Positions 28,539 to 64,000 of a DNA stretch of 64,000 nucleotides are shown piece after piece. Location of the stretch: NCBI GenBank assembly GCA_030699125.1, contig JAUYKM010000009.1, forward strand, positions 108,647 through 172,646, written 5' to 3'. The position numbers and the translations under genes are program-made. This DNA comes from Candidatus Daviesbacteria bacterium. GTDB lineage: Bacteria; Patescibacteriota; Microgenomatia; Daviesbacterales; UBA10151. Position 1 is the first letter of the stretch. Each line of letters starts with the position of its first letter. The notes beneath the pieces are model-generated. The model searched no databases, had not been told where the DNA came from, and saw only the letters and a program-made list of their open reading frames with translations.

Positions 28539-28546
28539 TCATCATA

Positions 28547-31788: not shown

Positions 31789-31824
31789 AAATTAGCTTTT
31801 ATCTTTCCAAATTGTTAACATTAA

Positions 31825-45617: not shown

Positions 45618-47990
45618 ATGTTGGATTATTCAACAATCGCTTGGATTAAAATTATAGTTTTTTTGATTCCCATTTGGTTTACAGGAATAATAGTGGTTCG
45701 ATCTATCGTTAAGAGACAGAGAGTCGAGCTGGTCCTTCCTGTAGGCTTAATAGTGGGGCTTTCCCTATATGTTTTTTTCTTAAACAGTTTGTCATATATT
45801 TTAACTCCTCCTTGGAGCATCTTAATCTCTTACATAATTTTTCCCATGATAGGATTTATCTTTTGGAGAGTTTGTAAATTTGATAAGTGGGATTTGCTCA
45901 ATGGTAAGATATTATTCGTCTACCTTTTATCACTTTTATTGTGGACAAGCTTATTCATTTGGAAAGGTAATTTTGCTTTAATTGGAAGCGATACAAATCT
46001 TTATTATTCTGTTGCGCATACATTCTTAAATGGTAATTTCCCTCCCAAAACGCCATGGCAGCCGGATCTATCATTAGTTTATCATCTTGGAACCTTTGAA
46101 CTATTAGGTGCTTTTTATTATTTTACAAATCTCCCGTTTCAATTTCTACATATTTTCTTTTCTGCTATTATGATTCTTGCATGTTCGCAGATTATTATTT
46201 GGCTTTGGAAAAGACATGAGTCCTTCATTTCAGTAACTATAATAAATTTAGCAGTTGCTGTAATTTTTATCAGTTTTGGTTTCTTTAAAATAGTGATTCC
46301 CGTCTTTCCTTTAAAATTTCCAAATATACCCTCGATTCATGAGTTTTTTTTATATATCAGAAACCTGCCTACTGTTAATCAGTCAATTGAAGTATATGGA
46401 GCCGCGATTAATTTGGATGGTCTAATTTATTTCATTTTTCATATTTTTGGAATTTCCATATTTATAGCCCTTTTAGCTTTAGTAGTTAATCTCAAAAAGG
46501 AAACCATATATTTGGGATTTACAGTTTTCCTAATTTGTTTGGCTTCCTTAGCTATTATAAATGAATCATTATTTATTGGAGCCTCCTCGTTAATAGTAAT
46601 AAGTTTAATTTATTTGCTTAAGGAGAAAGTTCTTTTAAAAAAGATTAAATTTGTTTCAGTATCTATCCTGATCTTTGGGGTTATTGTTTTGTTTCAAGGG
46701 GGGGTAATAACGAATATTTTGGTAAAAAATGATGCAATTGAATCATCAATAATTTTTTTTCCAAAGAAAGGCCAAATTGAGGGAGATATAGACGCTTATC
46801 ATCTTCATCAACAAATATCAAAAGCATTAGAAGGAAGAAAAAATTGGTATCCTTTCACTTGGATTCATGTGGGAGTTGATTTGTTAATTCTATTTATAAC
46901 TTTATCCATTACTTTCATAAAATATACATCAAATCAGAGGCTGATAATTTTCGCATTATTTCTTGGCGGAGCCCTTTCTTTAATTGCCTATAATAATATA
47001 GTGCCAAAGCTCTTGGCGGCAAATGGTAACAGATTTTTAGGATTTGCATTTATATTTTTTTCATTAGCATTGCTTTACTCCCTTTCTAACTGGATAGGCA
47101 ATTTTCTGAAAGGAAAATCACCCCTTAACTATTTATTAATAATTATTGTGGTGAGTTGGATTTTCTTACCAACGGTTTTGCCGCCATTGACACTTCTTTC
47201 CAAAACTAGATTTGGAGAAAACAAGCTAATTCCCAACGAGTCAATAAGCAGTCCTGGGATTCTGTGGTTGAGAAATAATGCAAATTTTTCCAACAGAGTA
47301 ATGGTCTTAGATAAAAATGCACCTCATCCCAGTGGTCAGGCGCGTGCTTTAGTTGAAGCAGGAATTTTTGCACCGGTTTTTACTGGTAACTTTAGAGCTT
47401 ATACTATTGAAGCCTCTCCGGAATATATTGATACAGCATATTCATTAAGCCCATTAGCTTTGCAAAAATTACAAATCTCTCTACTGCTAATCGATGCAGA
47501 TTTTTACCAGATGTTGCACCAAAAAAGAAAGATTCAATTAGATGATGATAAATACTTCGAAAAAGTTTTTGACAATTCCAATATGCAAAATAATTGGGAA
47601 AAAATTTATAAGATAAAAAAGGAATACTTAAAAAATGGAGAAGAATTAAGCGGTACCCTGGAAGAATTATCGGAAAAATTACTAAAAAGGGAAAAAATTT
47701 ATATAGACAATGAGGAAAATTTTAAGTATGATTTTTTAAGAAGACCAATCATATTTATGTTAAGAAATAAGGATTTATACTTTAATCCTCAGTCAGGTGT
47801 ATATTTAAATGTTGAGGCAAAAATTAATCAAAGGACCCCCGAAGAAGATATTAAATATGATTTTTTAATTTTGGGAAATAAAACTGACTCACATGAGGTT
47901 TGTGATTGCAGTGCAGAATTGATATGGAGGGGATTAAATGGTCAGGTTTATTTATGGAGGTCGGAGTATTTTGGCAAAGTGGAAAAATAA
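45618..47990 (+). CDS. Large polytopic membrane protein (790 aa) with a C-terminal soluble domain of about 280 aa; family unknown.
   Basis: It has at least 14 predicted TM helices over about 500 aa, then a hydrophilic C-terminus. Its 3' end overlaps the convergent GT2 gene by 43 nt. Confidence 0.45.
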   Translation: MLDYSTIAWIKIIVFLIPIWFTGIIVVRSIVKRQRVELVLPVGLIVGLSLYVFFLNSLSYILTPPWSILISYIIFPMIGFIFWRVCKFDKWDLLNGKILFVYLLSLLLWTSLFIWKGNFALIGSDTNLYYSVAHTFLNGNFPPKTPWQPDLSLVYHLGTFELLGAFYYFTNLPFQFLHIFFSAIMILACSQIIIWLWKRHESFISVTIINLAVAVIFISFGFFKIVIPVFPLKFPNIPSIHEFFLYIRNLPTVNQSIEVYGAAINLDGLIYFIFHIFGISIFIALLALVVNLKKETIYLGFTVFLICLASLAIINESLFIGASSLIVISLIYLLKEKVLLKKIKFVSVSILIFGVIVLFQGGVITNILVKNDAIESSIIFFPKKGQIEGDIDAYHLHQQISKALEGRKNWYPFTWIHVGVDLLILFITLSITFIKYTSNQRLIIFALFLGGALSLIAYNNIVPKLLAANGNRFLGFAFIFFSLALLYSLSNWIGNFLKGKSPLNYLLIIIVVSWIFLPTVLPPLTLLSKTRFGENKLIPNESISSPGILWLRNNANFSNRVMVLDKNAPHPSGQARALVEAGIFAPVFTGNFRAYTIEASPEYIDTAYSLSPLALQKLQISLLLIDADFYQMLHQKRKIQLDDDKYFEKVFDNSNMQNNWEKIYKIKKEYLKNGEELSGTLEELSEKLLKREKIYIDNEENFKYDFLRRPIIFMLRNKDLYFNPQSGVYLNVEAKINQRTPEEDIKYDFLILGNKTDSHEVCDCSAELIWRGLNGQVYLWRSEYFGKVEK

Positions 47991-51156: not shown

Positions 51157-52109
51157 AGACAAAGATACTGGTGACAGGTGGGGCGGGATTTATTGGTAGT
51201 GAGGTTGTAAAACAACTTATTGAAAGAGGGTACCAAGTCAGAGTAGCTGATGATTTATCAAAAAAAGAGGCTAAAGTCCCTAAAGAATGTGAGTTCTTGA
51301 AGCTTGATTTGACTAAAAAAGAAGCAGCGTTACGGGCAATGGAAGGGATAGATTATTGCATACATTTGGCAGCCAAAATTGGCGGGATTGGCTATTTTCA
51401 TAAATATCCAGCAACAATACTTTCCGAAAATAATAAAATGTACTCTGCTGTGTTTGAAGCAGCGGTTGCCAAAAAAATAAAAAGAATTATTTATTTATCC
51501 TCATCCATGGTTTTTGAATCAACTAATAGATTTCCCAGTAAAGAGAGTGATTTGGATAAAATTCCCCCTCCGGTCTCAAGTTATGGTTTCTCCAAATTAG
51601 TGGGGGAGTGGTACTGCAGAGCTTTTAGAGACGAATATGGACTCCCTTACACCATCATAAGACCCTTTAATGCTTATGGCATAAATGAAGCTCCAGGAGA
51701 AGAGATAGGTTATGCTCATGTTATCCCGGATTTAATAAAAAAAATATTGTCTGGCCAATATCCGCTGGAACTTTTAGGAAATGGAAGGCAAACCAGATGT
51801 TTTACTCATGTTTCAGATATTACTAGGGGAATAATACTGGCCATGGAATCTGATAAAGCAATTAATGATGATTTCAATATTGGCTCGGAGAAAGAAATGA
51901 GGATGCTAGATTTAGCAGAGCTACTCTGGCGAAAATGTAATGCAGACAAACCATTTAAAGTTAAATATGTAAAAGGCTTTAAATACGATATTAAAAGAAG
52001 AGTACCATCCTCAAAAAAAACAAAAAAAATATTGAAATGGGAACCCAAAAAGAAATTTGAGCAAGAGTTACCGGAAATTATTAATTGGATTAGTCATAGT
52101 ATTTCTTAA
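51153..52109 (+). CDS. NAD-dependent nucleotide-sugar epimerase/dehydratase (extended SDR).
   Basis: It carries 'KILVTGGAGFIGSEVVKQL', the 'YGFSK' active-site YxxxK motif, and 'RPFNAYG'. Its 5' end overlaps gene 49828 by 4 nt. Confidence 0.75.
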   Translation: MKTKILVTGGAGFIGSEVVKQLIERGYQVRVADDLSKKEAKVPKECEFLKLDLTKKEAALRAMEGIDYCIHLAAKIGGIGYFHKYPATILSENNKMYSAVFEAAVAKKIKRIIYLSSSMVFESTNRFPSKESDLDKIPPPVSSYGFSKLVGEWYCRAFRDEYGLPYTIIRPFNAYGINEAPGEEIGYAHVIPDLIKKILSGQYPLELLGNGRQTRCFTHVSDITRGIILAMESDKAINDDFNIGSEKEMRMLDLAELLWRKCNADKPFKVKYVKGFKYDIKRRVPSSKKTKKILKWEPKKKFEQELPEIINWISHSIS

Positions 52110-52839
52110 AATTGTTTAATCTAATCCTTAAAAGATCATATAAAGATGTAATAATATCGTGAGGCAGTTTCACCTTAGTATTTGAGTCATCTCTCCAGGT
52201 TACCGGCATCTCTTTTATATTAAAACCCCTTTTCTTGCCTATAAAAAGTATTTCCGAATCAAAACCCCAACGATCAATCCTTTGCCTTCTAAAAATTTCC
52301 TCGGCTGCTTTTTTTGAAAAGCATTTGAATCCACAAGTAAAATCCAATAGATTAAGGCCCAAGAAAATTTGAGATAACTTTGTAAATCCTTTACCTAATT
52401 TCTCGCGAATTTTCGGCTGATGCATCAATAATTTTGCCCCTCTTTTTTTCCTTGAGCCAATCAAAATATCAAACTTTTTAAGATGCGGAAGGTAATTATC
52501 AAATTCTTCAATCGGTGTAGAAAAATCAATATCTGTGAAAAGCCGGTAATCGCCTTTTGCTTTAAGCATACCGGTTTTGATTGCAAATCCCTTGCCCTTA
52601 TTCATTTGATAAGAAATTAGTTCGAAAAAATGATGAGGAGGTAGTTGCTTCAATATTTTTCTGATTAATTTTAAACTTTCATCTGTACTGCCATCATTTA
52701 CGAGAATAACTTCAGTTGAGAACTTTTTTTGTCTCAAATAATGAAAAAGTAAGGAGAGATTAGCAATTCTTCCCCCTTCGTTATAAAAGGGAATAATAAT
52801 AGATAAAAAAGGAATATCAATTTTTTTTCTTCTCTTCAT
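52090..52839 (-). CDS. GT2 polyprenyl-phosphate sugar synthase (Dpm1/GtrB-like).
   Basis: It carries 'LSIIIPFYNEGGRI', 'VILVNDGSTDES', 'NKGKGFAIKTG' and 'LFTDIDFSTP' (DXD). Confidence 0.7.
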   Translation of the reverse strand: MKRRKKIDIPFLSIIIPFYNEGGRIANLSLLFHYLRQKKFSTEVILVNDGSTDESLKLIRKILKQLPPHHFFELISYQMNKGKGFAIKTGMLKAKGDYRLFTDIDFSTPIEEFDNYLPHLKKFDILIGSRKKRGAKLLMHQPKIREKLGKGFTKLSQIFLGLNLLDFTCGFKCFSKKAAEEIFRRQRIDRWGFDSEILFIGKKRGFNIKEMPVTWRDDSNTKVKLPHDIITSLYDLLRIRLNNFKKYYD

Positions 52840-53561
52840 TCTTTCTTTGCAATAGCGATAATTGAGGTGCCGAAAGGGATAGTAAAGTGTTTTGCAAGAT
52901 AAAATTCACCGCTTGCCATAAGATTTAATAATGCATTAAAGAATGGATTTGACAATCTAAAATCTGATGGGTAGTTGTTTTTAAAGAACATCCCTTTGAT
53001 CTTACGGATAATTAGTGATGGTATGACTAAAAAGGAATAAAGGTAGGTTACCTTTAGGGGGTGTAAATTAGTATTCTCTAGGGTTCTGATTAAGTTTTCT
53101 TTGGTATACCTTCTCTTATGAAATAGAACTTCATCCCATCTACTCCAGAGCCATGAGAAAGCTGGAACCGTAATAATAATTATGCCATCCTTTTTTAAAA
53201 TTCTTTGCATCTCTTTTAAAGTTTTATTATCATCAGTATGCTCCAATACATCAAGTAGAGTAATAACATCAAAATTATCAGGACTTAGATTTGTTTTTTT
53301 AGCATCCCCGACGAGAACATTTTTCAATCCCCTCATCTTACAATATTTAATAGCGTCAATTGATTGGTCAAGCCCCCAAACTTTGCCAATTTTTTGAAGA
53401 CCTTCCATATTTTTACCCGTCCCACAACCAACATCTAAAATTTTTGGATTTTTAATCTTAATATATGTTTTAATCATATTTTGTACTATTTTCCTTTTTG
53501 AAATATGCCACCAATGTATATCTTCTAACTCGTATAGATCTTGATATAAGTAGGACTTCAT
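52836..53561 (-). CDS. Class I SAM-dependent methyltransferase.
   Basis: It carries 'ILDVGCGTGKNMEGL' (motif I) and 'ITLLDVLEH'. The start is placed at the ATG at 53561 (MKSYLYQ), not 53669, to avoid overlapping the divergent gene 53605 and to give normal spacing to motif I. Confidence 0.65.
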   Translation of the reverse strand: MKSYLYQDLYELEDIHWWHISKRKIVQNMIKTYIKIKNPKILDVGCGTGKNMEGLQKIGKVWGLDQSIDAIKYCKMRGLKNVLVGDAKKTNLSPDNFDVITLLDVLEHTDDNKTLKEMQRILKKDGIIIITVPAFSWLWSRWDEVLFHKRRYTKENLIRTLENTNLHPLKVTYLYSFLVIPSLIIRKIKGMFFKNNYPSDFRLSNPFFNALLNLMASGEFYLAKHFTIPFGTSIIAIAKKE

Positions 53562-53604
53562 AGTATGATGAATTTTGAGAATAATAACATACCAAACATA
53601 AATA

Positions 53605-54111
53605 ATGAAAAGATTAGTATATTTTCTCGCCATCAATTTTTTAATTATACCCTCAATTTTAGTTGCCATTACGCCTAATGTGGTTTATGCGGATGAGATT
53701 GAGGATTTAAAACTGGAGAAGCAACTGGTCAATCCTGACTCTTTCTATTACCCTGCTAAGAGATATATTGAGAATCTACAAAATATGTTTATGTTTTCTA
53801 AAGATAGTAAAGTAAATTTACATAAAAATCTTCTTAAAAAAAGAGCCTCTGAATTAAAGTATATTGTAGAAGATAGGGTTTTATCGGAACTAGAAAGAGG
53901 TTCACAAAGATTTGCTTATCAAGCAGGGATCTTAGTTGAGGAAGCAGAAAAAGATTACACCGAACAAGGTAAGAAGGAAATTAAGGATCAGTTCAGCAAA
54001 TATAAAAAATTACTCGATCAATTGAGAGAAAATTTTAAAGCTAACTCAAGTTTTTGGATGCTAATTCAACAGGATATAGATACACTTGATATACTTTCCG
54101 AAAAGATTTAA
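53605..54111 (+). CDS. Secreted, predominantly alpha-helical protein of 168 aa; function unknown.
   Basis: It has the signal peptide 'MKRLVYFLAINFLIIPSILVAITPNVVYA/DE'. The remainder is charged and coiled-coil-like. Confidence 0.5.
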   Translation: MKRLVYFLAINFLIIPSILVAITPNVVYADEIEDLKLEKQLVNPDSFYYPAKRYIENLQNMFMFSKDSKVNLHKNLLKKRASELKYIVEDRVLSELERGSQRFAYQAGILVEEAEKDYTEQGKKEIKDQFSKYKKLLDQLRENFKANSSFWMLIQQDIDTLDILSEKI

Positions 54112-54114
54112 TTG

Positions 54115-54681
54115 CTATTCCAGATATACCTGGTAAACTCTAAATTTAAGCTCGAATGAAGGATCATAGTTGCTTAAACCAAAAGCTGCTGTTTCATAGT
54201 CTCCCGAAATCCAATTTAGCTTTCTTTCCACAACATCTAGATCTTGGGTTAATAGAACAGTCTTATTAGTATCTTCAGAGCCTATATGGATAGGCTGCCC
54301 ACCAGGACCCCATCCTTTTCTGTAGATTGACAAGAATATATCAAGGGGTTGATTTACACTAATAAGTGCCTTCAGGTTATGTGCCCTATACAATATATAT
54401 TGGGAAATCTCTCCCCTACATTCAATTAAAGGAGTATAAGGAGTTTTGTCCAGATTGATAAAAGTAAATTCTATATAGTTATCCGAGGTAACTAGACCGT
54501 ATTCAGGTACGACTCTACTGGGAAATAGTCTAGTATACTGCCATATAGTGGGATTAGGAATGGCGCATATATGGTAATTGATATTTAAGGGTGCAGGTTT
54601 TATTGGGTCTCCTGTTCTATAGATTATATACAAAAAAAAGAAAACTAAAAGAAAGATAGCAGTATACTTTATGGTTTTCAT
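54115..54681 (-). CDS. Small N-terminally anchored or secreted protein, paralog B (188 aa); function unknown.
   Basis: The N-terminal TM is 'AIFLLVFFFLYIIY', followed by 'GDPIKP'. It has two conserved Cys, 'VNQPLDIFLSIYRKGWGPGGQP' and 'KLNWISGDYE', all shared with gene 54689. Confidence 0.55.
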   Translation of the reverse strand: MKTIKYTAIFLLVFFFLYIIYRTGDPIKPAPLNINYHICAIPNPTIWQYTRLFPSRVVPEYGLVTSDNYIEFTFINLDKTPYTPLIECRGEISQYILYRAHNLKALISVNQPLDIFLSIYRKGWGPGGQPIHIGSEDTNKTVLLTQDLDVVERKLNWISGDYETAAFGLSNYDPSFELKFRVYQVYLE

Positions 54682-54688
54682 TAAAATA

Positions 54689-55294
54689 CTAGTCTAAAAA
54701 GACCGAATATATAGTTATGATTAAATCTTTATTTTCATCAAATTCCTTTGCTCCGATTGATACTGCTTCATAATCTCCAGAGAGCCAATTAAGCCGTTTC
54801 TCCTGTTCGACCTGTCCGCTATCAATTTGCCAATCTAATGTTATGATATTATTAATTTCATCAGTACCAATATCCTGGGGTTGCCAACCGGGTCCCTGGC
54901 CTACTCTATGTATACCGATATCAAACTTTATAGGTTGATTAACCTCCATTTTGATGTTAATTGTTTTAGCGCGGAATAATATTTCTTTTGGGATTCTCTT
55001 TTTGCACTGTATCATGAAATGAGTAGTATCCTTGTAGGTAAACTGGATATGTGATTCCACTTCATCATTAAAAGATTTGGTACTAGAGATCAGGAAAGGT
55101 TTTTTTATTACGTCAACCCAAGAGTTAATATCATTAAGGTCACAAGCGTAAAACCGCTCAGTTAACCGTTGTGGTTTAATTGGGTTGGCAGTAACAAATA
55201 TCGTCCATGTAAACACTATAGTAATTATAATTACTAATAGTTTATTAATTAAGTGAAACCTATTTATTTTCAGTATGCGACTCAAGTACATCAT
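54689..55294 (-). CDS. Small N-terminally anchored or secreted protein, paralog A (201 aa); function unknown.
   Basis: The N-terminal TM is 'LLVIIITIVFTWTIFV', followed by 'ANPIKP'. It has two conserved Cys, 'VNQPIKFDIGIHRVGQGPGWQP' and 'RLNWLSGDYE'. Confidence 0.55.
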   Translation of the reverse strand: MMYLSRILKINRFHLINKLLVIIITIVFTWTIFVTANPIKPQRLTERFYACDLNDINSWVDVIKKPFLISSTKSFNDEVESHIQFTYKDTTHFMIQCKKRIPKEILFRAKTINIKMEVNQPIKFDIGIHRVGQGPGWQPQDIGTDEINNIITLDWQIDSGQVEQEKRLNWLSGDYEAVSIGAKEFDENKDLIITIYSVFLD

Positions 55295-57068
55295 CTTTTA
55301 TATCAATAAGCTTTGTGCCCTCAATACGAAATGCAAAAAATGAATTAGTGGCAATAAGATCTTCTTTCTCTTCATTAAGGATATTATTGATGTCTTCTCT
55401 ATTAAATATAAAGTTTACCTGAGGCGGATTATTTATTTCTCCTAAATGTATAGGTACTCTCCTTTTAAATACTGCATTTGCTATTTTTTCATCAAAATCC
55501 TTATCAAGCTCTAAATAAATATAAGTTACTTCTTCCTTTGCCAGGAGCTGAGAAATAGTAGGCTCAAGCATAATCCATACAGAGTCATACTTAGAAGCAT
55601 TAATATTATGACCTTCTTGTATCAGAAATTCTCTTGTCGAAATTGCCTGAATAAATATGAGCCACAAACCGATTACAATAAGAAAGAAACTAAAAACAAT
55701 TGAAGTGAAATAACTAAAAAGGGACGATAATTGGAATAAATTTCTTTTTACTTGCAGTAGACGATCTTTAATTGAATAAAAACAAATGGCAAGTACCGAA
55801 CCTATTAGCATACCCATACCTATACTTGGAACAGTGTAATAACGATGTATATAGGTAAATGCTGATTGATCATTTCCTGAAACTTCTGGAGATATTAACC
55901 ATGGTATCAAAAGATTAGCAAGCACAATGCCACTACCCAAAAGGCCTATTTGAGAAATTTCTTTAAACCGATTCCAATATTTAATAAGTACTAGATTTGA
56001 TAGGAGGAAAAAAGTACCGCCAAACTGAGTAATTGGTATCCAAACGGCTTGCCAACCTTCAAGATTTTTTAAGGAATAACCTACCAGAGGCGAGAAGATC
56101 ACTACTGGGATTGATAAAAACACCAGTAAAAACTTCCTTTTTAAAAAGAGATTAAATGAGAAGAGTATCGCAAATAAGGGGATAATCTGTGGTAAGTTTT
56201 GTATCAGGGTAGTGCTTATATAGCCATAATTTACAGAGAATGGTGAGATAATTAGGTTGCTGATAAAAAACCATAAGGAAAGTATAACTGGAGGATACCC
56301 TGTAAAAAGGGCCAGCAATAAAATGGACGGAGAGACTCTTTTATATGATAATTCAGGGGTAGAACTTAATGTACCGGTTATAAAGATAAGCAAAAAAATG
56401 ACAGCGATAAGGGTAAGAAAGTGATAAACTCTGATTCTCCTACCCCTCTCTTTATAATTTTTGAAAAACCAATAAAATTCTCCTGCAAAAGTCAAAAGAA
56501 CAGTACCTACCAATCTTACAGGATGAGTAAGAACGGTTAATAAAAAAAAGGAAATTGAGCCTATAAGTGTTTTTCTGGTGGGGTGTTGGTGAAATTGAAA
56601 CCACTTTCCCAAAAAAAATGAAAAAACTATTATTGCTGTATATATTTGAAAAAGAGATACTCGAGTAGTTGACTGAATTCCTGCAGTATTAATTCCAAAA
56701 AAGAGTGCAGCAATAGAGGCTGTTATTCTATTTTTTGACCATTTAACAACAAAATAATATATCGATATAACAGCTAAAATTCTCAAGACCACATTTAAAA
56801 TAAAATAATATTTAGAGTTAAAATCAAAAAAGCGGTAGGCAATAGCTAAAGAGGTAAATTGAGTACCATATTGATGAAAATAATAAAGAGGTGAAGGATG
56901 CAGAAAGCTCACATTTCTGCCAAAATGCCCCTCACCTTTAACAATGCTTAAATCCTCATGACTTGGATCAGGAAGGATATGAAAGAGTGCAGGATATAAA
57001 ACAATAAAAGTCACTATGACTACAAATAGGATAGGTAAAAATGATAAAAAATTATGTTTAAAGGTCAT
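55260..57068 (-). CDS. Polytopic membrane protein of 602 aa (GT-C-like candidate), downstream of a GtrB-like GT2.
   Basis: It has about 13 TM helices and a C-terminal hydrophilic domain of about 150 aa. Its 5' end overlaps GT2 gene 57065 by 4 nt. Confidence 0.45.
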   Translation of the reverse strand: MTFKHNFLSFLPILFVVIVTFIVLYPALFHILPDPSHEDLSIVKGEGHFGRNVSFLHPSPLYYFHQYGTQFTSLAIAYRFFDFNSKYYFILNVVLRILAVISIYYFVVKWSKNRITASIAALFFGINTAGIQSTTRVSLFQIYTAIIVFSFFLGKWFQFHQHPTRKTLIGSISFFLLTVLTHPVRLVGTVLLTFAGEFYWFFKNYKERGRRIRVYHFLTLIAVIFLLIFITGTLSSTPELSYKRVSPSILLLALFTGYPPVILSLWFFISNLIISPFSVNYGYISTTLIQNLPQIIPLFAILFSFNLFLKRKFLLVFLSIPVVIFSPLVGYSLKNLEGWQAVWIPITQFGGTFFLLSNLVLIKYWNRFKEISQIGLLGSGIVLANLLIPWLISPEVSGNDQSAFTYIHRYYTVPSIGMGMLIGSVLAICFYSIKDRLLQVKRNLFQLSSLFSYFTSIVFSFFLIVIGLWLIFIQAISTREFLIQEGHNINASKYDSVWIMLEPTISQLLAKEEVTYIYLELDKDFDEKIANAVFKRRVPIHLGEINNPPQVNFIFNREDINNILNEEKEDLIATNSFFAFRIEGTKLIDIKDDVLESHTENK

Positions 57069-57757
57069 TTTAGATAGTAACGTAATTTTAGCATATCAAT
57101 CATTGCTCCGATGATGGATTTTAAATGTGCTCCAGTTGCTTTGCCGCCTTTACGGGGAAAATAACTTATAGGCACAGATACTATCTTAAAGCCTAACAGC
57201 TGAGCTCTGATTATTCTTTCGGCTTCAGAAAAAACACTCTTAGAGATTGGTGTAGTTTTTTTTAAAACCTCCATTTTATAAACTTTATTACTTCCGGCAT
57301 CATATAATTTAACACCAAACAATATCTCCGGAAGTATATTATAAATATAGCTCAGAGCTTTTCTGAAAATTCCATAGTAGACTTTCGTTCTTCTTTTTCC
57401 AATAATCAAATCATATCTCTCATCTACTTTATCAAGCATTTTCGACAGATCTTTAATAGTGTATTGACCATCAGCTGCATTTATAAACACTAATTGTTTA
57501 GATGCTTTTTTGTAAAGAAACTCCAGTCCTCCTGAAATACCTAAAGGTTTCTTTTGATGAAATATTTTTATTTTGGGGTATTTTTTAGAGTAAAAATCTA
57601 ATATTTGACCTGTTTTATCACTGCTAGCATCATCGTTTACCAAAATTTCCCAATTTCTGGTCAATTTGGATAGTACATCCAGTGATTCCTCTATAACTTT
57701 TTTTACAGAATTTTCTTCATTCTTAGCAATTATTACAGCGGAAATAGAATATGTCAT
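57065..57757 (-). CDS. GT2 polyprenyl-phosphate sugar synthase (Dpm1/GtrB-like).
   Basis: It carries 'ISAVIIAKNEENSV', 'ILVNDDASSDKT', 'KKPLGISGG' and 'FINAADGQY' (DXD). Confidence 0.65.
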   Translation of the reverse strand: MTYSISAVIIAKNEENSVKKVIEESLDVLSKLTRNWEILVNDDASSDKTGQILDFYSKKYPKIKIFHQKKPLGISGGLEFLYKKASKQLVFINAADGQYTIKDLSKMLDKVDERYDLIIGKRRTKVYYGIFRKALSYIYNILPEILFGVKLYDAGSNKVYKMEVLKKTTPISKSVFSEAERIIRAQLLGFKIVSVPISYFPRKGGKATGAHLKSIIGAMIDMLKLRYYLK

Positions 57758-58791
57758 CTGTCTAGAATAATTGGTTTGTTTTTTTGAATAGATTCATCAC
57801 AAGCCTCAAGTAAAGAAATAATCTCAATATTCATTTTGGCATTTTCATAACTAATTTTTTTGTTCAAGATCTGCTTGATTACCTCATCTATTTCCACATA
57901 TAATGCTTCTTCGTTTTCCAATTTTGGGATAACTATTTTTCCACTTCGATAAATTGGTTTAAAAGGAGTTACAGTATTTGTAGGCAAGCTGATACCTCTA
58001 TCATAGATTTTAACTTTTTCATCCGGTTCTACATCATCATAAAAAATCATTTTCTTTGTCCCCCCTATTAAAATAGTTCTAAGCTTAACCGGAGAGATCC
58101 AAGAAACATGAATATGAGCTATAAAATTATTTGAATAGTTTATGGTGATATGAGCCATTTCTTCTCTGGTATTATCCCCATGATGTTTAGAACCCGTACA
58201 GAAAATTTTAGTGGGTTTAAGGTTGAAGCAATAAATCAATATAGCCAGATCATGAGGAACCAAATCCCAAATAACGTTAATATCCTGCTGGATAAGTCCC
58301 AAGTTTGATCTGGTTGAATCATAATATAGAGGTTCCCCTAGTAGTGATCGATTTTGAGTAAGATCTTTAATGGCTTTGATTGCTCCCGTATACAAATAAG
58401 TTAGGTCACAATGCAGCAGAAGTCCTTTCTTTTGTGCTAAATTTATTAGTTTTTTTGCATCTTGAGACTTGGTGGCTAATGGTTTTGCCACTATTATGTG
58501 TTTATTAGCTTTTAGGGCATTATAAGCAATCTGAAAATGAGTTTGGGGAGGTGTTGCTATTGCCAATAGATCTATTGTTTTATCTGATAAAATATCCTGA
58601 TAATTCTTAGTTAACTTGATATTAGGATAATATTTGTTAATCTTTTTAAGAGATTCGTCAGATAAGTCACAGGCCCAAATAACTTCTGCCTGATCATGGC
58701 CCATTAGATTCCTTATAAAATTTGGACCCCAATAGCCTACCCCTATTACAGCTGTTTTTATTTTCGGAGGAAAAAACTTGCTCATTTTCAT
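57754..58791 (-). CDS. Gfo/Idh/MocA-family NAD(P)-dependent oxidoreductase, likely a nucleotide-sugar dehydrogenase/oxidoreductase.
   Basis: It carries the N-terminal Rossmann 'KTAVIGVGYWGPNFIRNL' and 'HIIVAKPLA' (an EKP-like motif). Confidence 0.7.
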   Translation of the reverse strand: MKMSKFFPPKIKTAVIGVGYWGPNFIRNLMGHDQAEVIWACDLSDESLKKINKYYPNIKLTKNYQDILSDKTIDLLAIATPPQTHFQIAYNALKANKHIIVAKPLATKSQDAKKLINLAQKKGLLLHCDLTYLYTGAIKAIKDLTQNRSLLGEPLYYDSTRSNLGLIQQDINVIWDLVPHDLAILIYCFNLKPTKIFCTGSKHHGDNTREEMAHITINYSNNFIAHIHVSWISPVKLRTILIGGTKKMIFYDDVEPDEKVKIYDRGISLPTNTVTPFKPIYRSGKIVIPKLENEEALYVEIDEVIKQILNKKISYENAKMNIEIISLLEACDESIQKNKPIILDR

Positions 58792-58876: not shown

Positions 58877-59950
58877 ATGAATAGAATATTAATTACAGGG
58901 ATAGGAGGATCAGCTGGTTTGGGGTTTGTAAACTCTTTAAAAGATTCAGGAGAAGAATGTTATATTATTGGATGCGACAGTGATAAATATTCCTTAGAAA
59001 GAGCAAAAGCAGATGAAAAATATCTGGTTCCTTTATGTAGAGATAAGAACTATTTAAAAGTCTTAAAAAAAATTATCAGAAAAACTGAGCCCGATTTGAT
59101 CTATTCTCAAGTGGATGTGGAAATTGAAGTCTTATCTGAAAATAGAGAAATTTTTGAAAAAATGGGAGTCAAAACCTTTTGGCCGTCCAAAAAAGTAGTT
59201 AAGATTTGTCAAAACAAGCACCTTTCTTATTTAGCTTGGAAAAAAGCAGGGATGACTGTTCCAAATACAATCCTTATAGATAATGGGGATGATTTAAAAA
59301 AAGCAATCAGGAAATTTGGGTTACCAATATGGATAAGAGAGATTAAGGGAGCTTTTGGGAAAGGATCCCTTCCAGCTAATTCTTTTGAGGAAGCAGCAAT
59401 TTGGATTGATGCTCACAAAGGTTGGGGGAAATTTAGTGCGGCAGAACTTTTAGACGCAGAAAGAATGGTTACTTGGCAGTCAATTTGGTATAAGGGCAAC
59501 TTGATAATTGCTCAAAGTAGAAAAAGACTTTACTGGGAATTTGCTAACAGAGTTCCTTCTGGCGTGACGGGCTTGACGGGTGCGGGAATAACGGTTAAGG
59601 ATAAGTTAGTGGATAAACTAGCCATAAAAGCCATAAAAGCAATAGATAAGAAACCACACGGGATATTTAGTGTTGATTTCACTTATAATAAAAAAGGGAT
59701 TCCTAATCCAACAGAAATAAACATTGGTAGATTTTTCACAACCCACTATTTTTTTACCAAGGCTGGATTAAATATGCCATATATATATGTCAAACTTGCT
59801 CTTAAAGGTGAGATACCTAAAATTAAAAATAAAATAAATCCGCTCAAAGCTGGTCTGGTTTGGATACGCGGACTAGATTTCGAGCCAATTTTAACAACTA
59901 TAGATCATTTAAAATTATATGAAAAAAAGCTAAAAGCGCTTACCGATTAA
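58877..59950 (+). CDS. ATP-grasp-fold ligase (candidate carboxylate-amine ligase).
   Basis: It has the N-terminal pre-ATP-grasp 'ILITGIGGSAGLGFV'. The central region 'WIREIKGAFGKGS...' and its length are consistent with ATP-grasp enzymes. The assignment is tentative. Confidence 0.45.
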   Translation: MNRILITGIGGSAGLGFVNSLKDSGEECYIIGCDSDKYSLERAKADEKYLVPLCRDKNYLKVLKKIIRKTEPDLIYSQVDVEIEVLSENREIFEKMGVKTFWPSKKVVKICQNKHLSYLAWKKAGMTVPNTILIDNGDDLKKAIRKFGLPIWIREIKGAFGKGSLPANSFEEAAIWIDAHKGWGKFSAAELLDAERMVTWQSIWYKGNLIIAQSRKRLYWEFANRVPSGVTGLTGAGITVKDKLVDKLAIKAIKAIDKKPHGIFSVDFTYNKKGIPNPTEINIGRFFTTHYFFTKAGLNMPYIYVKLALKGEIPKIKNKINPLKAGLVWIRGLDFEPILTTIDHLKLYEKKLKALTD

Positions 59951-59952
59951 TT

Positions 59953-60843
59953 ATGAGAATTATTCTAACAGGAGCAACAGGATTTATTGGAAGTCATCTA
60001 ATACCGCAACTTCTTAATGATAGCGAAATTAAAAAAGTCTTATTATTAATCCGGAATGTTGACAAACTAAATAGGGAATATTTTAAGAATAAAAAGGTAG
60101 AGATATTAGAGATTGATTTACTTAGGGTGAACATACCAAGATTGCCAAAATATGATGTATTGATTCATTTAGCAGATATTATACCTTCCAAAAAGGATGT
60201 AACGAATTTTTCCGATAATATAAGAATTGTAGAAAATATTATTAACAGTATAATTTTAAAAAAGGTTGTCAAAAAAGTAATTTATACCTCCACCTTAGAT
60301 GTTTATGGGAAAATTATTTATTTGCCAGTAGATGAGGTTCATCCTACTAATCCATTAACTTTCTATGGTATTTCCAAATTGGCCAATGAATTATTAATTA
60401 TTAGGGCATCAAGGAATGCCAAGATAAGTTGTATAATATTAAGATTGTCTCAGGTTTATGGACCAAATGAACCTTTAGTAAAAGTGATACCTTTATTTAT
60501 TAAAAAGATAAAAAATAGTGAGGAAATCTCATTAAAAAATAAGGGCAAAATTATTCGTGATTGGGTATACGTCAAAGATGTAGTATCAGCAATTGATAAT
60601 GCTTTATACGCTAACTCCCAAGGCATTTTTAATATAGCCACAGGCAAGGGTTATCCACTTGAGGAATTAATAAAAATTCTAGGTAAACTTGCTAATAACA
60701 AACCTAAAATAATAAAGGAAGCTAACAATAACGAATTAAGACCAAAAATTATTCTAGGTATTGAAAAGGCAAAAAAGTTATTAAATTATCATCCCACTTA
60801 TTTTTTAGAAAAGGGCCTTAAGGATTATTTAGAAAACTTATGA
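59953..60843 (+). CDS. NAD-dependent epimerase/dehydratase (SDR family).
   Basis: It carries 'MRIILTGATGFIGSHLIPQL' and 'YGISK' (YxxxK). Confidence 0.7.
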   Translation: MRIILTGATGFIGSHLIPQLLNDSEIKKVLLLIRNVDKLNREYFKNKKVEILEIDLLRVNIPRLPKYDVLIHLADIIPSKKDVTNFSDNIRIVENIINSIILKKVVKKVIYTSTLDVYGKIIYLPVDEVHPTNPLTFYGISKLANELLIIRASRNAKISCIILRLSQVYGPNEPLVKVIPLFIKKIKNSEEISLKNKGKIIRDWVYVKDVVSAIDNALYANSQGIFNIATGKGYPLEELIKILGKLANNKPKIIKEANNNELRPKIILGIEKAKKLLNYHPTYFLEKGLKDYLENL

Positions 60844-61466
60844 AAATTTTCTTTGATCTAGATGGGACACTGATAGATGTATCGAAAAGATATTATTTTG
60901 TCCATAAAAAAGCGGCACTAGTTATTGGCAAAAAATCGTTATCTTTTAAAGAATATTGGCAAAAAAAAAGAAAAAAAATTCCAGAGAATAAAATCTTAAA
61001 TATAGATAGCGAGAGTTCTCAATTTAAAGAATATCAGAAAATAAGAATAAATTTGTTAGAAAATTTAGACTATCTGAGTCTAGATACCCCATTTGAAAAT
61101 GTATTTGATACCTTGGTTGCATTGACCAAAAAACATAAGTTGTATCTGATTACCTTGAGAAGGAATGAAAAGAATTTAAATACCCAACTTAAACAACTTA
61201 AACTAAATAAATTTTTCATAAAAATTTTTTCATCTCCTCCGGATAAAGATCTTACAATAACAAAAATAAAAATTATAAAGAACTTGGGATACTCAAAGAA
61301 TGATTTGATTATAGGGGATACGGAAGCTGACACTGAAGCGGCAAAAAAATTAGGTATAAGATCTGTGGCAGTATTTAGCGGAATTAGGACTGAATCTTTT
61401 TTAAAAAAATATCATCCGGATATATTAATTAAAGATGTTTCGCATTTGCTCAAGATCCACTTATGA
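60840..61466 (+). CDS. HAD-superfamily hydrolase/phosphatase.
   Basis: It carries motif I 'FFDLDGTL' and motif IV 'GDTEADTEAAKKLG'. Confidence 0.7.
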   Translation: MKIFFDLDGTLIDVSKRYYFVHKKAALVIGKKSLSFKEYWQKKRKKIPENKILNIDSESSQFKEYQKIRINLLENLDYLSLDTPFENVFDTLVALTKKHKLYLITLRRNEKNLNTQLKQLKLNKFFIKIFSSPPDKDLTITKIKIIKNLGYSKNDLIIGDTEADTEAAKKLGIRSVAVFSGIRTESFLKKYHPDILIKDVSHLLKIHL

Positions 61467-61482
61467 TAATATAAAATTCAGC

Positions 61483-63384
61483 ATGCCTTTTTTAAAAAAT
61501 TCTACCTTTTGGATTTTTACACTATTACTAGTTATTGTATCGGTTATTCAATTTACGATATTTCAGCCATTAATTGAGAATAGCCGTCTAATTAATTTTA
61601 GAGATGATTTATTGTTTCTTTTAATGTACAAAACATTGGATCCTGAGCCTATAAGTCAATTTTGGAATGTTTGGACAAAATACTCCGGTCTACACAACAC
61701 GGCCCATGTGTATCACATTGGAATATTGTCTGAATTTTTAGGTAACAACTATCAATATTATCCAACAGCAAATATTTTATTAAAAATTGTGGCAACTTTA
61801 TCTATTTTTCCTGCGGTAATTGTTATTTTTAAAAACAGATTACTGGCTTTTTTATCCTCCATTCTTTTTAGTATTAGCTCTGCCACTGCCGGTTCGCTTT
61901 TTCGGGTAAGTAATGGAAATGATTACGTAGCATTGACAATAATGAATATTTTCTTTATCAGTTATTATTGGATTTTCGTAAAGCATTCAAAAGGGCTGCT
62001 TGTATTATCAGCTCTTCTTTTTTTTATAGCTTATTTAACATCTCCTGGTAGAATATTTCCACTATTGTTGCTTATTTTTCTAGTTGAAATATTCTGGTTA
62101 TTGAAATTGCGCAATATTAATAATATAGGATTTTCCTTAGTTAGAATAATCTTCTATCTCATTCCAGTTTTTCTAATCTCTATTCCGGCGCCTGTTTCTA
62201 CATGCTGTCCCCTTATCAGTCAATCGCATACGTTACTTAAGGATATTATCAGCGGTAGTTTGTTTAATTTACTTGATCCCTTTGCATCAATTGGATGGAC
62301 AATATTTACCAATGATTACTGGAGATTTTTCGGCATCTTTGATTACAAAAGTTTAACTAATTTTGGTGATTACTTATCCTTCTTACTTAAAGGCCCAACT
62401 TTTATTTTCGGAACCTTGACACTTATATTATCTTTAATTTTAGTTAAAAAGCCACTCAGATTTTTCTTAAAGGTTTTTATTTTTAATTTTACACTTGAGG
62501 TTTTAATATTTTTTATAGCCAACAAGCATCCTACTCTAACAGAAGCGGACACATTCCAGTTACTCTTATTAAGATATCCAACATTGGTAAGCATATATAT
62601 TCTAACTTTAGCTTTGATTATTTTTTTGAGTTGGAGGAAAAATGATCTCAAAAGTGGTGTATCAAACGCTTTATGGGTTGGACCATTTATATCAATAATA
62701 TTTTTATGGCCAATGTGGGTTATAATGGGCCGTTTAATTAATGATTGGCATAGTGTGATTAGATATTTTCTCTGGCCAGCCTTAGGAACCTCTTTATTTG
62801 TGGGAGTAATATTATCTGCATTTTATGAAAGATTAAAAGGTAAAGATTTCCTTAGATACCTTTCAGTAATTATTATTTCTATTATCATCTTTAATTTATA
62901 CTTAAATAACAAAGAGGCCATTCAAAAAGAATTTCTGCCCGAAGGTGCACAGAAAATCAAAGTTACAGATCAGCGAATATTACAGGAGAAATTAGTAAGA
63001 AAATTGGATAGATCTGCTCAGAAAGGTGATCTATTAATTTATTTTGATTTTGAACAATCTGATTTGGGTTCTCAATATTATATTGAAGCCCTTCCTGTAG
63101 AGGCATTAGGAGTTATGCTCCATGTTAATAGAGGAAAGGGAACAAGTGGCTGTATAGCTGGTTTTACTGATCAAAAGGTATTTAAAAGTAGTATTAAAGA
63201 AAAAAATAATGAAATTGGCTTTGAGTACCCAGGGGTTTGTGTTAATGAAGATATAGTAAAAGCGGGTCTCAAAGAGAGTACAGAACCTCATTTCTTCACA
63301 CTTGATAAATTCTATGCGTTTAGTATAGAAAACGGAGATTTTGTGGATGTAAAAACTGATGTTTTAAGGGAATTAGGTATTTAA
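61483..63384 (+). CDS. Large polytopic membrane protein with a C-terminal soluble domain; family unknown.
   Basis: It has more than 12 TM helices and a hydrophilic C-terminus of about 170 aa. The start is placed at the ATG at 61483 (MPFLKNSTFW) to avoid a 32-nt overlap with the HAD gene. Confidence 0.45.
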   Translation: MPFLKNSTFWIFTLLLVIVSVIQFTIFQPLIENSRLINFRDDLLFLLMYKTLDPEPISQFWNVWTKYSGLHNTAHVYHIGILSEFLGNNYQYYPTANILLKIVATLSIFPAVIVIFKNRLLAFLSSILFSISSATAGSLFRVSNGNDYVALTIMNIFFISYYWIFVKHSKGLLVLSALLFFIAYLTSPGRIFPLLLLIFLVEIFWLLKLRNINNIGFSLVRIIFYLIPVFLISIPAPVSTCCPLISQSHTLLKDIISGSLFNLLDPFASIGWTIFTNDYWRFFGIFDYKSLTNFGDYLSFLLKGPTFIFGTLTLILSLILVKKPLRFFLKVFIFNFTLEVLIFFIANKHPTLTEADTFQLLLLRYPTLVSIYILTLALIIFLSWRKNDLKSGVSNALWVGPFISIIFLWPMWVIMGRLINDWHSVIRYFLWPALGTSLFVGVILSAFYERLKGKDFLRYLSVIIISIIIFNLYLNNKEAIQKEFLPEGAQKIKVTDQRILQEKLVRKLDRSAQKGDLLIYFDFEQSDLGSQYYIEALPVEALGVMLHVNRGKGTSGCIAGFTDQKVFKSSIKEKNNEIGFEYPGVCVNEDIVKAGLKESTEPHFFTLDKFYAFSIENGDFVDVKTDVLRELGI

Positions 63385-63385
63385 T

Positions 63386-64000
63386 TTATTTCCTCCTGAA
63401 TTTTGAATTTGATTTAACAACTTGTTGTAATAGTGTAGGAGTATATCCAAATTTCTGGGCTGTTTTTATAAGAGCAGAAAGGTCTTTTGGTAAGCATCTT
63501 CCCCCAAAACCTCTATTTTGGGGAAATACCCCACTATGAGATTTGTCTACCCTTGGATCAAGGGCCCAACCTTCCCAAACTTTATACCAATTTGCCCCGA
63601 GTTTCCTACATATTTCGAACATCTCATTTACGAAGGTAACTTTAGTTGCTAGATAGGCATTCTCCATATATTTAATAAGTTCTGCCTCTTTTGCATTGCA
63701 AATATAATATTTTTTATATGGTCCTAAAATAGGAATGAAATAATCCATAATTTCTGTTGCATCTTTCTCTTCTCCTCCAATAATAAGGTATGGCCAATCC
63801 TTTGCAGACGACCATTCTTTAGGAATCCAATAAGAAAACTCTCCAAAATATTCAGGAGACATACAAATTCTTTTTTTATACCTTTTTCTCAATCGATCTG
63901 TTGTCCCAGGTTCTACCGTAGACTTGATTAAAATAAGAGGAGTTTTCAACCATTTAACAGATGATTCAACAGCGGAGACATCACAGCTGCCATCCTTATT
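63386..64000 (-). CDS. UDP-glucose 6-dehydrogenase family protein, 5'-truncated by the window end (the gene continues beyond 64000).
   Basis: The minus-strand frame stays open from the annotated TTG to the window edge. It carries 'LIKSTVEPGTT' (the KSTVPvGT motif), 'GFGGRCLPKD' (the catalytic Cys motif) and 'KEAELIKYMENAYLATKVTFVNE'. Confidence 0.8.
   Translation of the reverse strand, partial: NKDGSCDVSAVESSVKWLKTPLILIKSTVEPGTTDRLRKRYKKRICMSPEYFGEFSYWIPKEWSSAKDWPYLIIGGEEKDATEIMDYFIPILGPYKKYYICNAKEAELIKYMENAYLATKVTFVNEMFEICRKLGANWYKVWEGWALDPRVDKSHSGVFPQNRGFGGRCLPKDLSALIKTAQKFGYTPTLLQQVVKSNSKFRRK

Follow-up and report, generated by a model that had tools for sequence, protein, structure and literature searches.

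Two consecutive genes in a Candidatus Daviesbacteria contig encode small, membrane-anchored proteins, S1 and S2, which are probably separate sugar-recognition subunits of M602, the GT-C-type membrane glycosyltransferase encoded just upstream. The proposal rests on two features: the predicted ectodomain has the fold of a carbohydrate-binding module (CBM), and genes of the S family always lie directly behind the GT-C gene. All positions below refer to the window, the 64-kb stretch of DNA analysed here. The genes belong to a five-gene operon on the minus strand, running from 58791 to 54115 in the order oxidoreductase, GT2, M602, S1, S2. By their Pfam matches and open reading frame (ORF) coordinates, the genes upstream of the small ones encode an oxidoreductase, a GT2 and a polytopic membrane protein of 602 aa, as an earlier sequence-only reading had described.

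57754..58791, minus strand: GFO/IDH/MocA-family NAD-dependent sugar oxidoreductase, 345 aa, first gene of the operon (Pfam PF01408, E = 6e-25, and PF22725)
57065..57757, minus strand: GT2, 230 aa (Pfam Glycos_transf_2, E = 8e-23)
55260..57068, minus strand: M602, divergent GT-C-fold membrane glycosyltransferase, 602 aa (fold search)
56952..56954, minus strand: codon for M602 D39, first external loop, motif Y-[EV]-D-[LF] (D/E in 22 of 26 aligned homologs)
54689..55294, minus strand: S1, the proximal small protein, 201 aa, with an N-terminal transmembrane (TM) anchor and a CBM-like beta-jelly-roll ectodomain (ORF; predicted fold)
55187..55243, minus strand: S1 hydrophobic anchor, residues 18-36, with F28-x-W30 near its outer end (n-region +4, h-region of 18 residues)
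55142..55144, minus strand: codon for S1 Cys51 (invariant across the family)
55004..55006, minus strand: codon for S1 Cys97 (invariant across the family)
54767..54790, minus strand: S1 NWLSGDYE block, residues 169-176 (most conserved segment of the family)
54115..54681, minus strand: S2, the distal paralog of S1, 188 aa, same architecture (ORF; BLASTP against S1)
54565..54567, minus strand: codon for S2 Cys39 (invariant across the family)
54418..54420, minus strand: codon for S2 Cys88 (invariant across the family)
54193..54216, minus strand: S2 NWISGDYE block, residues 156-163 (sequence match to the S1 block)

Start and stop codons overlap by 4 nt at both the oxidoreductase-GT2 and GT2-M602 junctions and by 35 nt between M602 and S1, while S1 and S2 are separated by 7 nt. 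An 85-nt gap precedes the oxidoreductase gene; promoter and terminator scans gave no signal above shuffled expectation.

The S family and its predicted fold

S1 and S2 are tandem paralogs, as first proposed from sequence, and align by BLASTP with E = 3e-31 and 30% identity across about 190 residues. Both N-termini carry positive charge followed by 16-18 hydrophobic residues, and the '(N/D)PIKP' motif noticed earlier comes right after the hydrophobic stretch (NPIKP in S1, DPIKP in S2). An AXA cleavage motif was sought in the S N-termini and is absent, in agreement with the N-anchored architecture first suggested. Within the anchor an F-x-W/Y motif is conserved, position 30 being W or Y in 91% of the family; this motif and the lack of an AXA site suggest a retained TM helix that makes specific contacts. 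The most likely topology is single-pass, N-in/C-out, with the ectodomain outside the membrane. Cleaved, secreted proteins were rejected, though not strictly, on the same two grounds.

An exhaustive HMMER search of 1.84 billion representatives yielded the S family, of which 33 members were aligned; a conserved family of this size rules out chance ORFs. Its members are free-standing proteins of 131-209 aa, every full-length one is anchored, and no fused form occurs among the representatives searched. The remainder of the window holds no further S-like copy, free or fused. Searching a word index for homologs of S1 and S2 returned the queries alone, a scan of genome contigs with the S-family alignment found no locus, and a scan of metagenome contigs found a single identical copy of S1 (L005). 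S2 is deposited at NCBI as hypothetical protein Q8P92_01890 [Candidatus Daviesbacteria bacterium]. In a neighbour-joining (NJ) tree it clusters with P0005, P0017 and P0003, the distal copy of locus L002, to which it is orthologous.

Each ectodomain contains exactly two cysteines (C51 and C97 in S1; C39 and C88 in S2), and their invariance in 33/33 aligned members extends the earlier observation of a conserved pair and makes a disulfide plausible. The conserved blocks first seen in the two paralogs are kept across the family. Strongest is NWL(S/T)GDY (W170 97%, L171 95%, G173 87%, Y/F175 97%), while 'NQP' (N119/Q120, 82-85%) and 'R.G.GP' (R130/G134, 82-87%) are somewhat more variable. Conserved aromatic positions comprise W59, W170 and Y/F175 (97% each) and Y/F107 and Y/F48 (87% each), and would be of the type typical of sugar-binding modules. 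The NQP turn, the GxGP loop and NWLSGDY could equally form a protein-protein interface.

The predicted structure of S1, the paralog that was modelled, is a CBM-type beta-jelly-roll, and the large majority of its top structural neighbours are carbohydrate-binding modules. The beta-sandwich is thus one shared with CBM families, but searches of Pfam, NCBIfam and PDB sequences place S in none of them. At E <= 0.01 the 33 members have no Pfam match save two single ones at chance level, NCBIfam returned nothing for S1 or S2, and PDB sequence searches with a single sequence and with a profile were negative. The view that S1 and S2 belong to no known family therefore stands at the level of sequence. 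A match to a known periplasmic family, which the sequence-only reading had held to count against it, did emerge at the level of fold (a CBM or galactose-binding-like sandwich), but not at that of sequence families. Type B/C CBMs of glycoside hydrolases (CBM4, 11, 15, 22, 27, 28, 29, 61) share 4-20% identity with S and give no profile match; those modules are attached to secreted, soluble hydrolases, and S by contrast is membrane-anchored, stands alone and is encoded beside a synthase-side enzyme.

M602, its probable donor genes and the adjoining S genes

Roughly twelve or more membrane helices are predicted in M602, and its C-terminus forms a small alpha/beta domain (approximately residues 490-602). 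This domain was checked for a beta-sandwich and has none; M602 lacks a CBM of its own. The polytopic core and architecture are those of GT-C enzymes (8-13 or more TM helices), and the best matches in a fold search are the protein-glycosylating GT-Cs Pmt4, Pmt2, STT3B and PglB, with AftA, AftB and AftD also matched. D39, just after TM1, provides the conserved acidic residue expected in the first extracytoplasmic loop of a GT-C and is a candidate for the catalytic acid; two of the four homologs lacking D/E at this position have no N-terminus, and the paralog M649 shows RDD there. At the Pfam gathering thresholds for PMT_2, PMT, YfhO and PTPS_related, M602 and 21 homologs remain without a match, bar the GT2 part of one fusion protein. 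NCBIfam and PDB sequence searches were negative, whether run with single sequences or with profiles, and aligning the M602 family by hhalign with a PMT_2 paralog from the window gave a probability of 1.6%, which is not significant. A genome scan with the M602 family found one genome, identical to L011. M602 was previously unannotated, and the M602-type GT-C clade and its S partner are two unannotated protein families.

The 230-aa GT2 probably supplies the lipid-linked donor as a polyprenyl-phosphate-sugar synthase. Its best NCBIfam matches, which all fall well short of the equivalog cut-offs (for example, 49 against 529 bits), are ArnC, dolichyl-P-hexose transferase, PgfS and PpgS. In 6/7 loci the GT2 gene is adjacent to the GT-C gene, in the same operon or fused to it, an indirect indication that M602 may use a polyprenyl-phosphate-linked sugar. 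The fusion, P0053, joins a GT2 ortholog end-to-end with the GT-C and supports a functional linkage of the two. The oxidoreductase probably helps to make the donor sugar; members of the GFO/IDH/MocA family also adjoin the module in L010, L011 and L006. The operon contains no dedicated flippase of the GtrA, MATE or Wzx type. No GtrA-type gene was found in the window, where the listed ORFs cover 99% of the sequence and leave no room for one; two Polysacc_synt_3 (Wzx-like) genes lie 14-44 kb from the operon.

A search for co-occurrence of the small proteins with GT-C genes, suggested in the sequence-only reading, gave a uniform result: in 8/8 informative loci (the window, L002, L006, L007, L009, L010, L011/L013 and L012) an S gene lies directly 3′ of an M602 ortholog. 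Three of these loci were reached from M rather than from S, and the M orthologs are deeply diverged (36-58% identical). Besides the 35-nt overlap in the window, M and S overlap by 1-11 nt in L002, L006, L007 and L009; by called-gene coordinates they overlap in L011 and L012 and are 27 nt apart in L010. Adjacency persists in loci whose remaining neighbourhood differs, and the window's other GT-C genes, more than 12 in number, all lack an S-like partner. Pairwise divergences of M and S are weakly correlated (Spearman 0.36, p = 0.06), and S diverges faster (mean identity 36%, against 41% for M). Two of the loci carry a taxonomic label, Daviesbacteria in both cases.

Proposed role of S1 and S2 and competing explanations

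The sequence-only reading had offered three functions for the small proteins. That of accessory subunits is favoured by the overlapping synteny with the GT-C gene in 8/8 loci and by the CBM-type beta-jelly-roll; that of glycosylated substrates gained no positive support, and that of substrate-presenting chaperones is a possible one. Our specific proposal, that S1 and S2 are CBM-like subunits, encoded in trans and anchored in the membrane, which form a complex with M602 and bind its acceptor, appears to us to have an even chance of being correct. The operon would then constitute an extracytoplasmic, lipid-carrier-dependent glycosylation module. The oxidoreductase would help to build an unusual nucleotide sugar, the GT2 would place this sugar on polyprenyl phosphate at the cytoplasmic face, the lipid-linked sugar would be flipped across the membrane, and M602 would move it to an acceptor outside. 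S1 and S2, produced in step with M602 from overlapping or abutting genes, would most likely dock on it by their conserved TM helix, and their jelly-roll ectodomains, each probably stabilised by one disulfide, would keep the acceptor glycan (or glycoprotein) close to the GT-C active site or select it there. The two proteins may form a heteromer or provide two acceptor specificities.

An explanation that we regard as unlikely, yet worth weighing, is that S1 and S2 are non-lectin structural or assembly subunits, whose part would be to stabilise M602, oligomerise it, set its position or fasten it to the wall or S-layer, in the manner of the non-catalytic single-pass subunits of eukaryotic oligosaccharyltransferase (OST) or of a CIA30-type assembly factor. 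The top structural neighbours of the S1 model argue against this, being mostly carbohydrate-binding modules, as do the several conserved Trp and Tyr residues that fit sugar stacking and the fact that the GT-C-associated beta-sandwich domains of Emb, AftD and GT136 bind acceptor glycans.

It is more doubtful still that S1 and S2 are dedicated protein substrates of M602. There is precedent in Pseudomonas, where TfpW/PilA and PilO/PilA each pair a polytopic GT-C protein glycosyltransferase with the surface protein that it modifies, encoded beside it; like S, the pilin is small, has its hydrophobic helix at the N-terminus and carries a disulfide, one that is plausible in S as well. A substrate role would also suit the export, membrane anchoring and gene position of S, the protein-glycosylating enzymes among the best fold matches of M602, and the weak likeness of the GT2 to PgfS, which belongs to a protein O-glycosylation system (E = 5e-10, well short of the cut-off). 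Against it, the S family has no conserved sequon, Ser/Thr-rich segment or strongly conserved Ser/Thr. The S genes differ from those of the pilin/O-OTase pairs in lying downstream rather than upstream of the enzyme, and the proteins in having a jelly-roll, no prepilin-peptidase motif and no conserved acceptor site. Type IV pilins were themselves rejected as an identity for S1 and S2, whose N-termini lack the G|F/M-x-x-x-E motif and whose beta-jelly-roll is not the pilin alpha-beta fold.

Least probable, in our estimation, are surface lectins that act downstream of the enzyme and are merely co-regulated with it, retaining or organising the glycan product or attaching the cell as an episymbiont to the glycans of its host; this way of life is common among CPR bacteria, and a CBM-like fold on a membrane anchor and the faster divergence expected of a surface-exposed specificity module would fit, but S adjoins the GT-C gene specifically in every locus, with codon overlap and even where neighbourhoods differ, and the other GT-C genes of the window have no such partner.

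Relation to known glycosylation systems

The closest parallels to the proposed acceptor-binding subunits are CBMs fused to GT-C enzymes. Such modules are reported to bind acceptor polysaccharide in EmbA/B/C and AftD of mycobacteria and in GT136 ORF12 of Citrobacter youngae (PMC3044687; PMC11127046). These systems and the present one would share a beta-sandwich of CBM type lying outside the cytoplasm beside a GT-C that depends on a polyprenyl-phosphate-sugar, S matching CBMs in fold and M602 matching AftA, AftB and AftD. They differ in that the Emb, AftD and GT136 modules are fused, whereas S forms a polypeptide apart, carries a TM anchor itself and is the product of one or two genes that follow the GT-C gene; S is likened to them by predicted fold, and no sequence similarity to any CBM family was detected. 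The fused CBM of GT136 was dispensable for activity under the conditions tested (PMC11127046), which means that a CBM partner is not necessarily central to the mechanism.

As in GtrA/B/C, CsbB-GtcA-YfhO, GtlA-GtcA-GtlB and GacI/J/K/L, a GT2, here a likely polyprenyl-P-sugar synthase, and a GT-C are encoded together. Unlike the GtrA/B/C-type systems, the S operon lacks a GtrA-type flippase, as does the window, which contains only two distant Wzx-like genes, and M602 belongs to no Pfam family (PMT_2, YfhO and others). Some multi-component systems carry an extra small membrane protein, as the S operon does, but GacJ assists the GT2 and has three TM helices and no ectodomain. Subunits of eukaryotic OST (Ost1/ribophorin I, Wbp1/OST48, Swp1/ribophorin II) are type I proteins with a C-terminal TM segment and other beta-sandwich folds, whereas the S anchor is N-terminal; no homology of S to these subunits was detected.

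A separately encoded, anchored CBM-fold partner of a GT-C has been speculated upon in reviews, and we did not find one described in the literature searched; a search for work on GT-C enzymes in CPR bacteria found nothing. We suggest, tentatively and at rather less than even odds, that M602 with S1 and S2 is the first GT-C whose acceptor-recognition module is a separate single-pass membrane subunit, and thus a bacterial multi-subunit GT-C. Duplication of S might then equip one catalytic core for two acceptors or form a heteromeric clamp. The impact of the finding is limited because the S family has very few members and a narrow lineage range, its organisms are uncultured, and function beyond fold and synteny is inferred.

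Acceptor choice by GT-C enzymes is poorly understood, and the acceptor-binding modules known so far are fused parts of the enzyme itself. In a review of Gram-positive wall glycosylation the question is raised, as a speculation, whether smaller GT-C enzymes need a second protein for acceptor binding (PMC8035078), and the locus offers a concrete candidate: two or three heterologously expressible genes, encoding a GT-C core and one or two anchored CBM-fold partners. If correct, a multi-subunit M602-S enzyme would answer that question and would be, in minimal bacterial form, an analogue of the eukaryotic OST with its several subunits. With the M602/S locus, the view of candidate phyla radiation bacteria as carriers of very large, unexplored glycosylation islands also gains a further example.

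The S genes and their probable operon

The sequence-only reading had called S1 and S2 as two small paralogous ORFs, and both were confirmed exactly, as listed here with the genes that precede them:

57754-58791, minus strand, GFO/IDH/MocA oxidoreductase
57065-57757, minus strand, GT2, a glycosyltransferase of 230 aa
55260-57068, minus strand, M602, a polytopic membrane protein of 602 aa
54689-55294, minus strand, S1, 201 aa
54115-54681, minus strand, S2, 188 aa

Because the five genes share a strand, overlap by 4, 4 and 35 nt at the oxidoreductase/GT2/M602/S1 junctions, leave only 7 nt between S1 and S2, and are preceded by an 85-nt gap 5′ of the oxidoreductase gene, they look like one operon; a simple scan for promoter and terminator signals returned nothing beyond chance. 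S1 and S2 are 30% identical over the full ectodomain (BLASTP, E = 3e-31). Each has a positively charged start, a hydrophobic stretch of 16–18 residues followed by (N/D)PIKP, and exactly two ectodomain cysteines, and a six-frame profile scan of the 64-kb window found no third copy, free or fused.

The earlier statement that these proteins could not be assigned to a family was correct: neither has a Pfam, NCBIfam or PDB sequence match. Word-indexed searches of 5.8 billion proteins with S1 and S2 matched only the queries themselves, S2 being NCBI 'hypothetical protein Q8P92_01890 [Candidatus Daviesbacteria bacterium]' on a 360-kb contig. When a two-sequence profile was run exhaustively with HMMER against 1.84 billion cluster representatives, it gave 34 matches, 33 of which form a coherent family of 131–205 aa aligned end to end; the remaining match is repetitive and confined to the TM segment. 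No individual member matches a Pfam family (0/33), and the family profile had no match among PDB sequences. Both cysteines are invariant in the 33-sequence alignment, conservation reaches 90% or more at P38, W59, L106, A109, W170 and L171, and the strongest motif of all is the NWL(S/T)GDY block. The n-regions carry a net charge of +1 to +5, and the median h-region length is 16 residues (15–20 in full-length members). Since the N-termini lack an AXA-type cleavage motif and position 30, inside the helix, is a conserved aromatic (W/Y, 91%), we infer that the segment would stay in the membrane as an N-in/C-out signal anchor that makes specific contacts there, with cleavage the less likely outcome.

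Association of S genes with M602 orthologs

Every S-seeded contig with enough upstream sequence (loci L002, L006, L007/L008 and L009) encodes an M602 ortholog, 34–39% identical to M602 (E = 1e-107 to 1e-141), whose gene ends 1–11 nt inside the S gene. In loci seeded with M602 (L010, L011 = L013, and L012) the next gene downstream belongs to the S family in 3/3 cases (profile E = 1e-55 to 1e-62), and M and S are adjacent in 8/8 informative loci. The adjacency has thus persisted through deep divergence, the M proteins of these loci sharing only 36–58% identity, and it is very probable that S is functionally coupled to the GT-C. L004, with a 47-aa upstream fragment resembling the M C-terminus (E = 0.03), is probably a ninth such locus; the L003 contig ends too early to reveal M. 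Taxonomically labelled sources number two, both Candidatus Daviesbacteria.

S is present as a tandem pair in the window, in L002 and in L003, with a single copy in the remaining loci. In a neighbour-joining tree without bootstrap support, S2 clusters with the distal L002 copy (P0003), and the L003 pair seems to have arisen independently by a later duplication. The small GT2 lies upstream in the operon in the window and L012, downstream in the operon in L011, and divergently beside the module in L006 and L009. L010 (6001-8388) encodes P0053, a 795-aa protein in which an ortholog of the window GT2 (residues 4–225, 54% identity) is fused end-to-end to an M602 ortholog (residues 230–794, 43% identity). 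This fusion, present on one contig only, supports a functional GT2–M602 link; it could also be an indel artefact across a 4-nt gene overlap.

Surrounding glycosylation island

Coding sequence makes up 99% of the window (1-64000), and the whole stretch is a single glycosylation island. PMT_2-type GT-C paralogs number at least 12 (including 1058-4283, 16259-17869 and 19050-20669, and a run of six at 27024-36462). Alongside them are two PTPS_related membrane proteins, a YfhO, a PIG-V-like mannosyltransferase and two Wzx-like flippases, as well as numerous enzymes of the GT2/GT4 and sugar-nucleotide kinds. Five large Pfam-less ORFs of 569–1139 aa (5897-7606, 10846-14265, 14262-16262, 41492-43387 and 45618-47990) may encode additional enzymes that lack annotation, of the GT-C type or otherwise acting on wall glycans, and binding domains may be fused to them. 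M649 (61435-63384, +) is a distant M602 paralog (E = 2e-13) that carries 'RDD' after TM1 and lacks an S partner. Ahead of it within 58877-63384 (+) lie genes for a PylC-like ATP-grasp, an epimerase and a HAD hydrolase; PylC-like, HAD and 612-aa Pfam-less genes also flank the M+S module of L012 (1-3273). For a 187-aa ORF that starts at TTG (63386-63949, −), the only match is to the central domain of UDP-glucose/GDP-mannose dehydrogenases; it probably extends beyond the window or has a wrongly called start.

A 168-aa DUF5667 protein with a signal peptide (53605-54111, +) is convergent with S2 and ends 3 nt from its stop. Convergent DUF5667 neighbours (40–47% identity) recur after S at L003 1037-1402, L007 6239-6688 and L008 4861-5310, either because synteny is conserved or because the protein is an additional component. 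Just beyond the window's DUF5667 gene lie a 277-aa class I SAM methyltransferase and a second GT2 of 249 aa (together 52090-53669, −); L010 and L011 likewise have a methyltransferase, a GT4 and a GT2 alongside the module. In L006 (785-8190) and L009 (75-6477), the genes beside M+S encode a sulfotransferase, an APH/fructosamine-kinase-like protein, split transketolase subunits and several epimerases/dehydratases, a hint that the sugar may be sulfated or otherwise unusual.

Predicted folds and a proposed role

The AlphaFold2 model of S1, built from the 33-sequence alignment (mean pLDDT 91.5, pTM 0.82), has an N-terminal helix at residues 4–36 followed by a ten-strand beta-sandwich. With high confidence, the ectodomain is predicted to be a galactose-binding-domain-like, carbohydrate-binding module (CBM)-type jelly-roll, resembling CBM4, CBM22, CBM11 and CBM30; the similarity is one of fold only, and a test of sequence membership placed S in no CBM family. 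Judged by conservation alone, aromatics W59, Y/F107, W170, Y/F175 and Y/F48 would suit sugar stacking. M602 has about 20 homologs (40–47% identity), all without a Pfam family. D39 (motif Y-[EV]-D-[LF]), directly after TM1, is acidic in 22/26 sequences, and an acidic residue here is a GT-C hallmark (PMC8035078); together with the fold match, this identifies M602, by predicted fold and motif, as a GT-C in no existing sequence family.

[quoted passage not shown] GT2 would synthesise a polyprenyl-P-sugar, a flippase whose gene is not assigned would move it across, and M602 would transfer the sugar outside. S1 and S2, co-synthesised as membrane-anchored CBM-fold partners, would most likely dock on the GT-C via the TM helix and bind the acceptor polymer. 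Experiments have demonstrated acceptor-polymer binding by the CBMs fused to EmbC (PMC3044687) and GT136 ORF12 (PMC11127046); whereas those CBMs are fused to the GT-C, S1 and S2 are separate anchored proteins proposed to play an equivalent role. For acceptor binding in particular, the chances appear about even.

S1 and S2 could instead be structural or assembly subunits that are not lectins, an unlikely reading to which the close structural similarity of S1 to CIA30 lends some weight, and the conserved loops could form a protein interface. That they are dedicated glycoprotein substrates would agree with the best M602 fold matches, which are protein glycosyltransferases, but in the S alignment no sequon is conserved, a linker rich in Ser/Thr is absent and no Ser/Thr exceeds 78% conservation, and codon-overlap coupling fits subunits better, making this quite improbable. 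Least likely are independent, merely co-regulated surface lectins, since S adjoins this GT-C specifically though neighbourhoods otherwise vary, and none of the >12 other GT-C genes in the window has an S-like partner.

CBM-assisted GT-C enzymes and GT2/GT-C modules are already known. We know of no stand-alone TM-anchored CBM-fold GT-C partner, and a limited literature search found none strictly coupled to a GT-C. The S/M602 system is tiny, lineage-restricted and drawn from prediction and synteny alone; it defines two unannotated families. With S1 and S2 as putative acceptor-binding partners of M602, the locus is a concrete candidate for the separate acceptor-binding partner raised in PMC8035078, and provides a way of testing a question that is acknowledged to be open.
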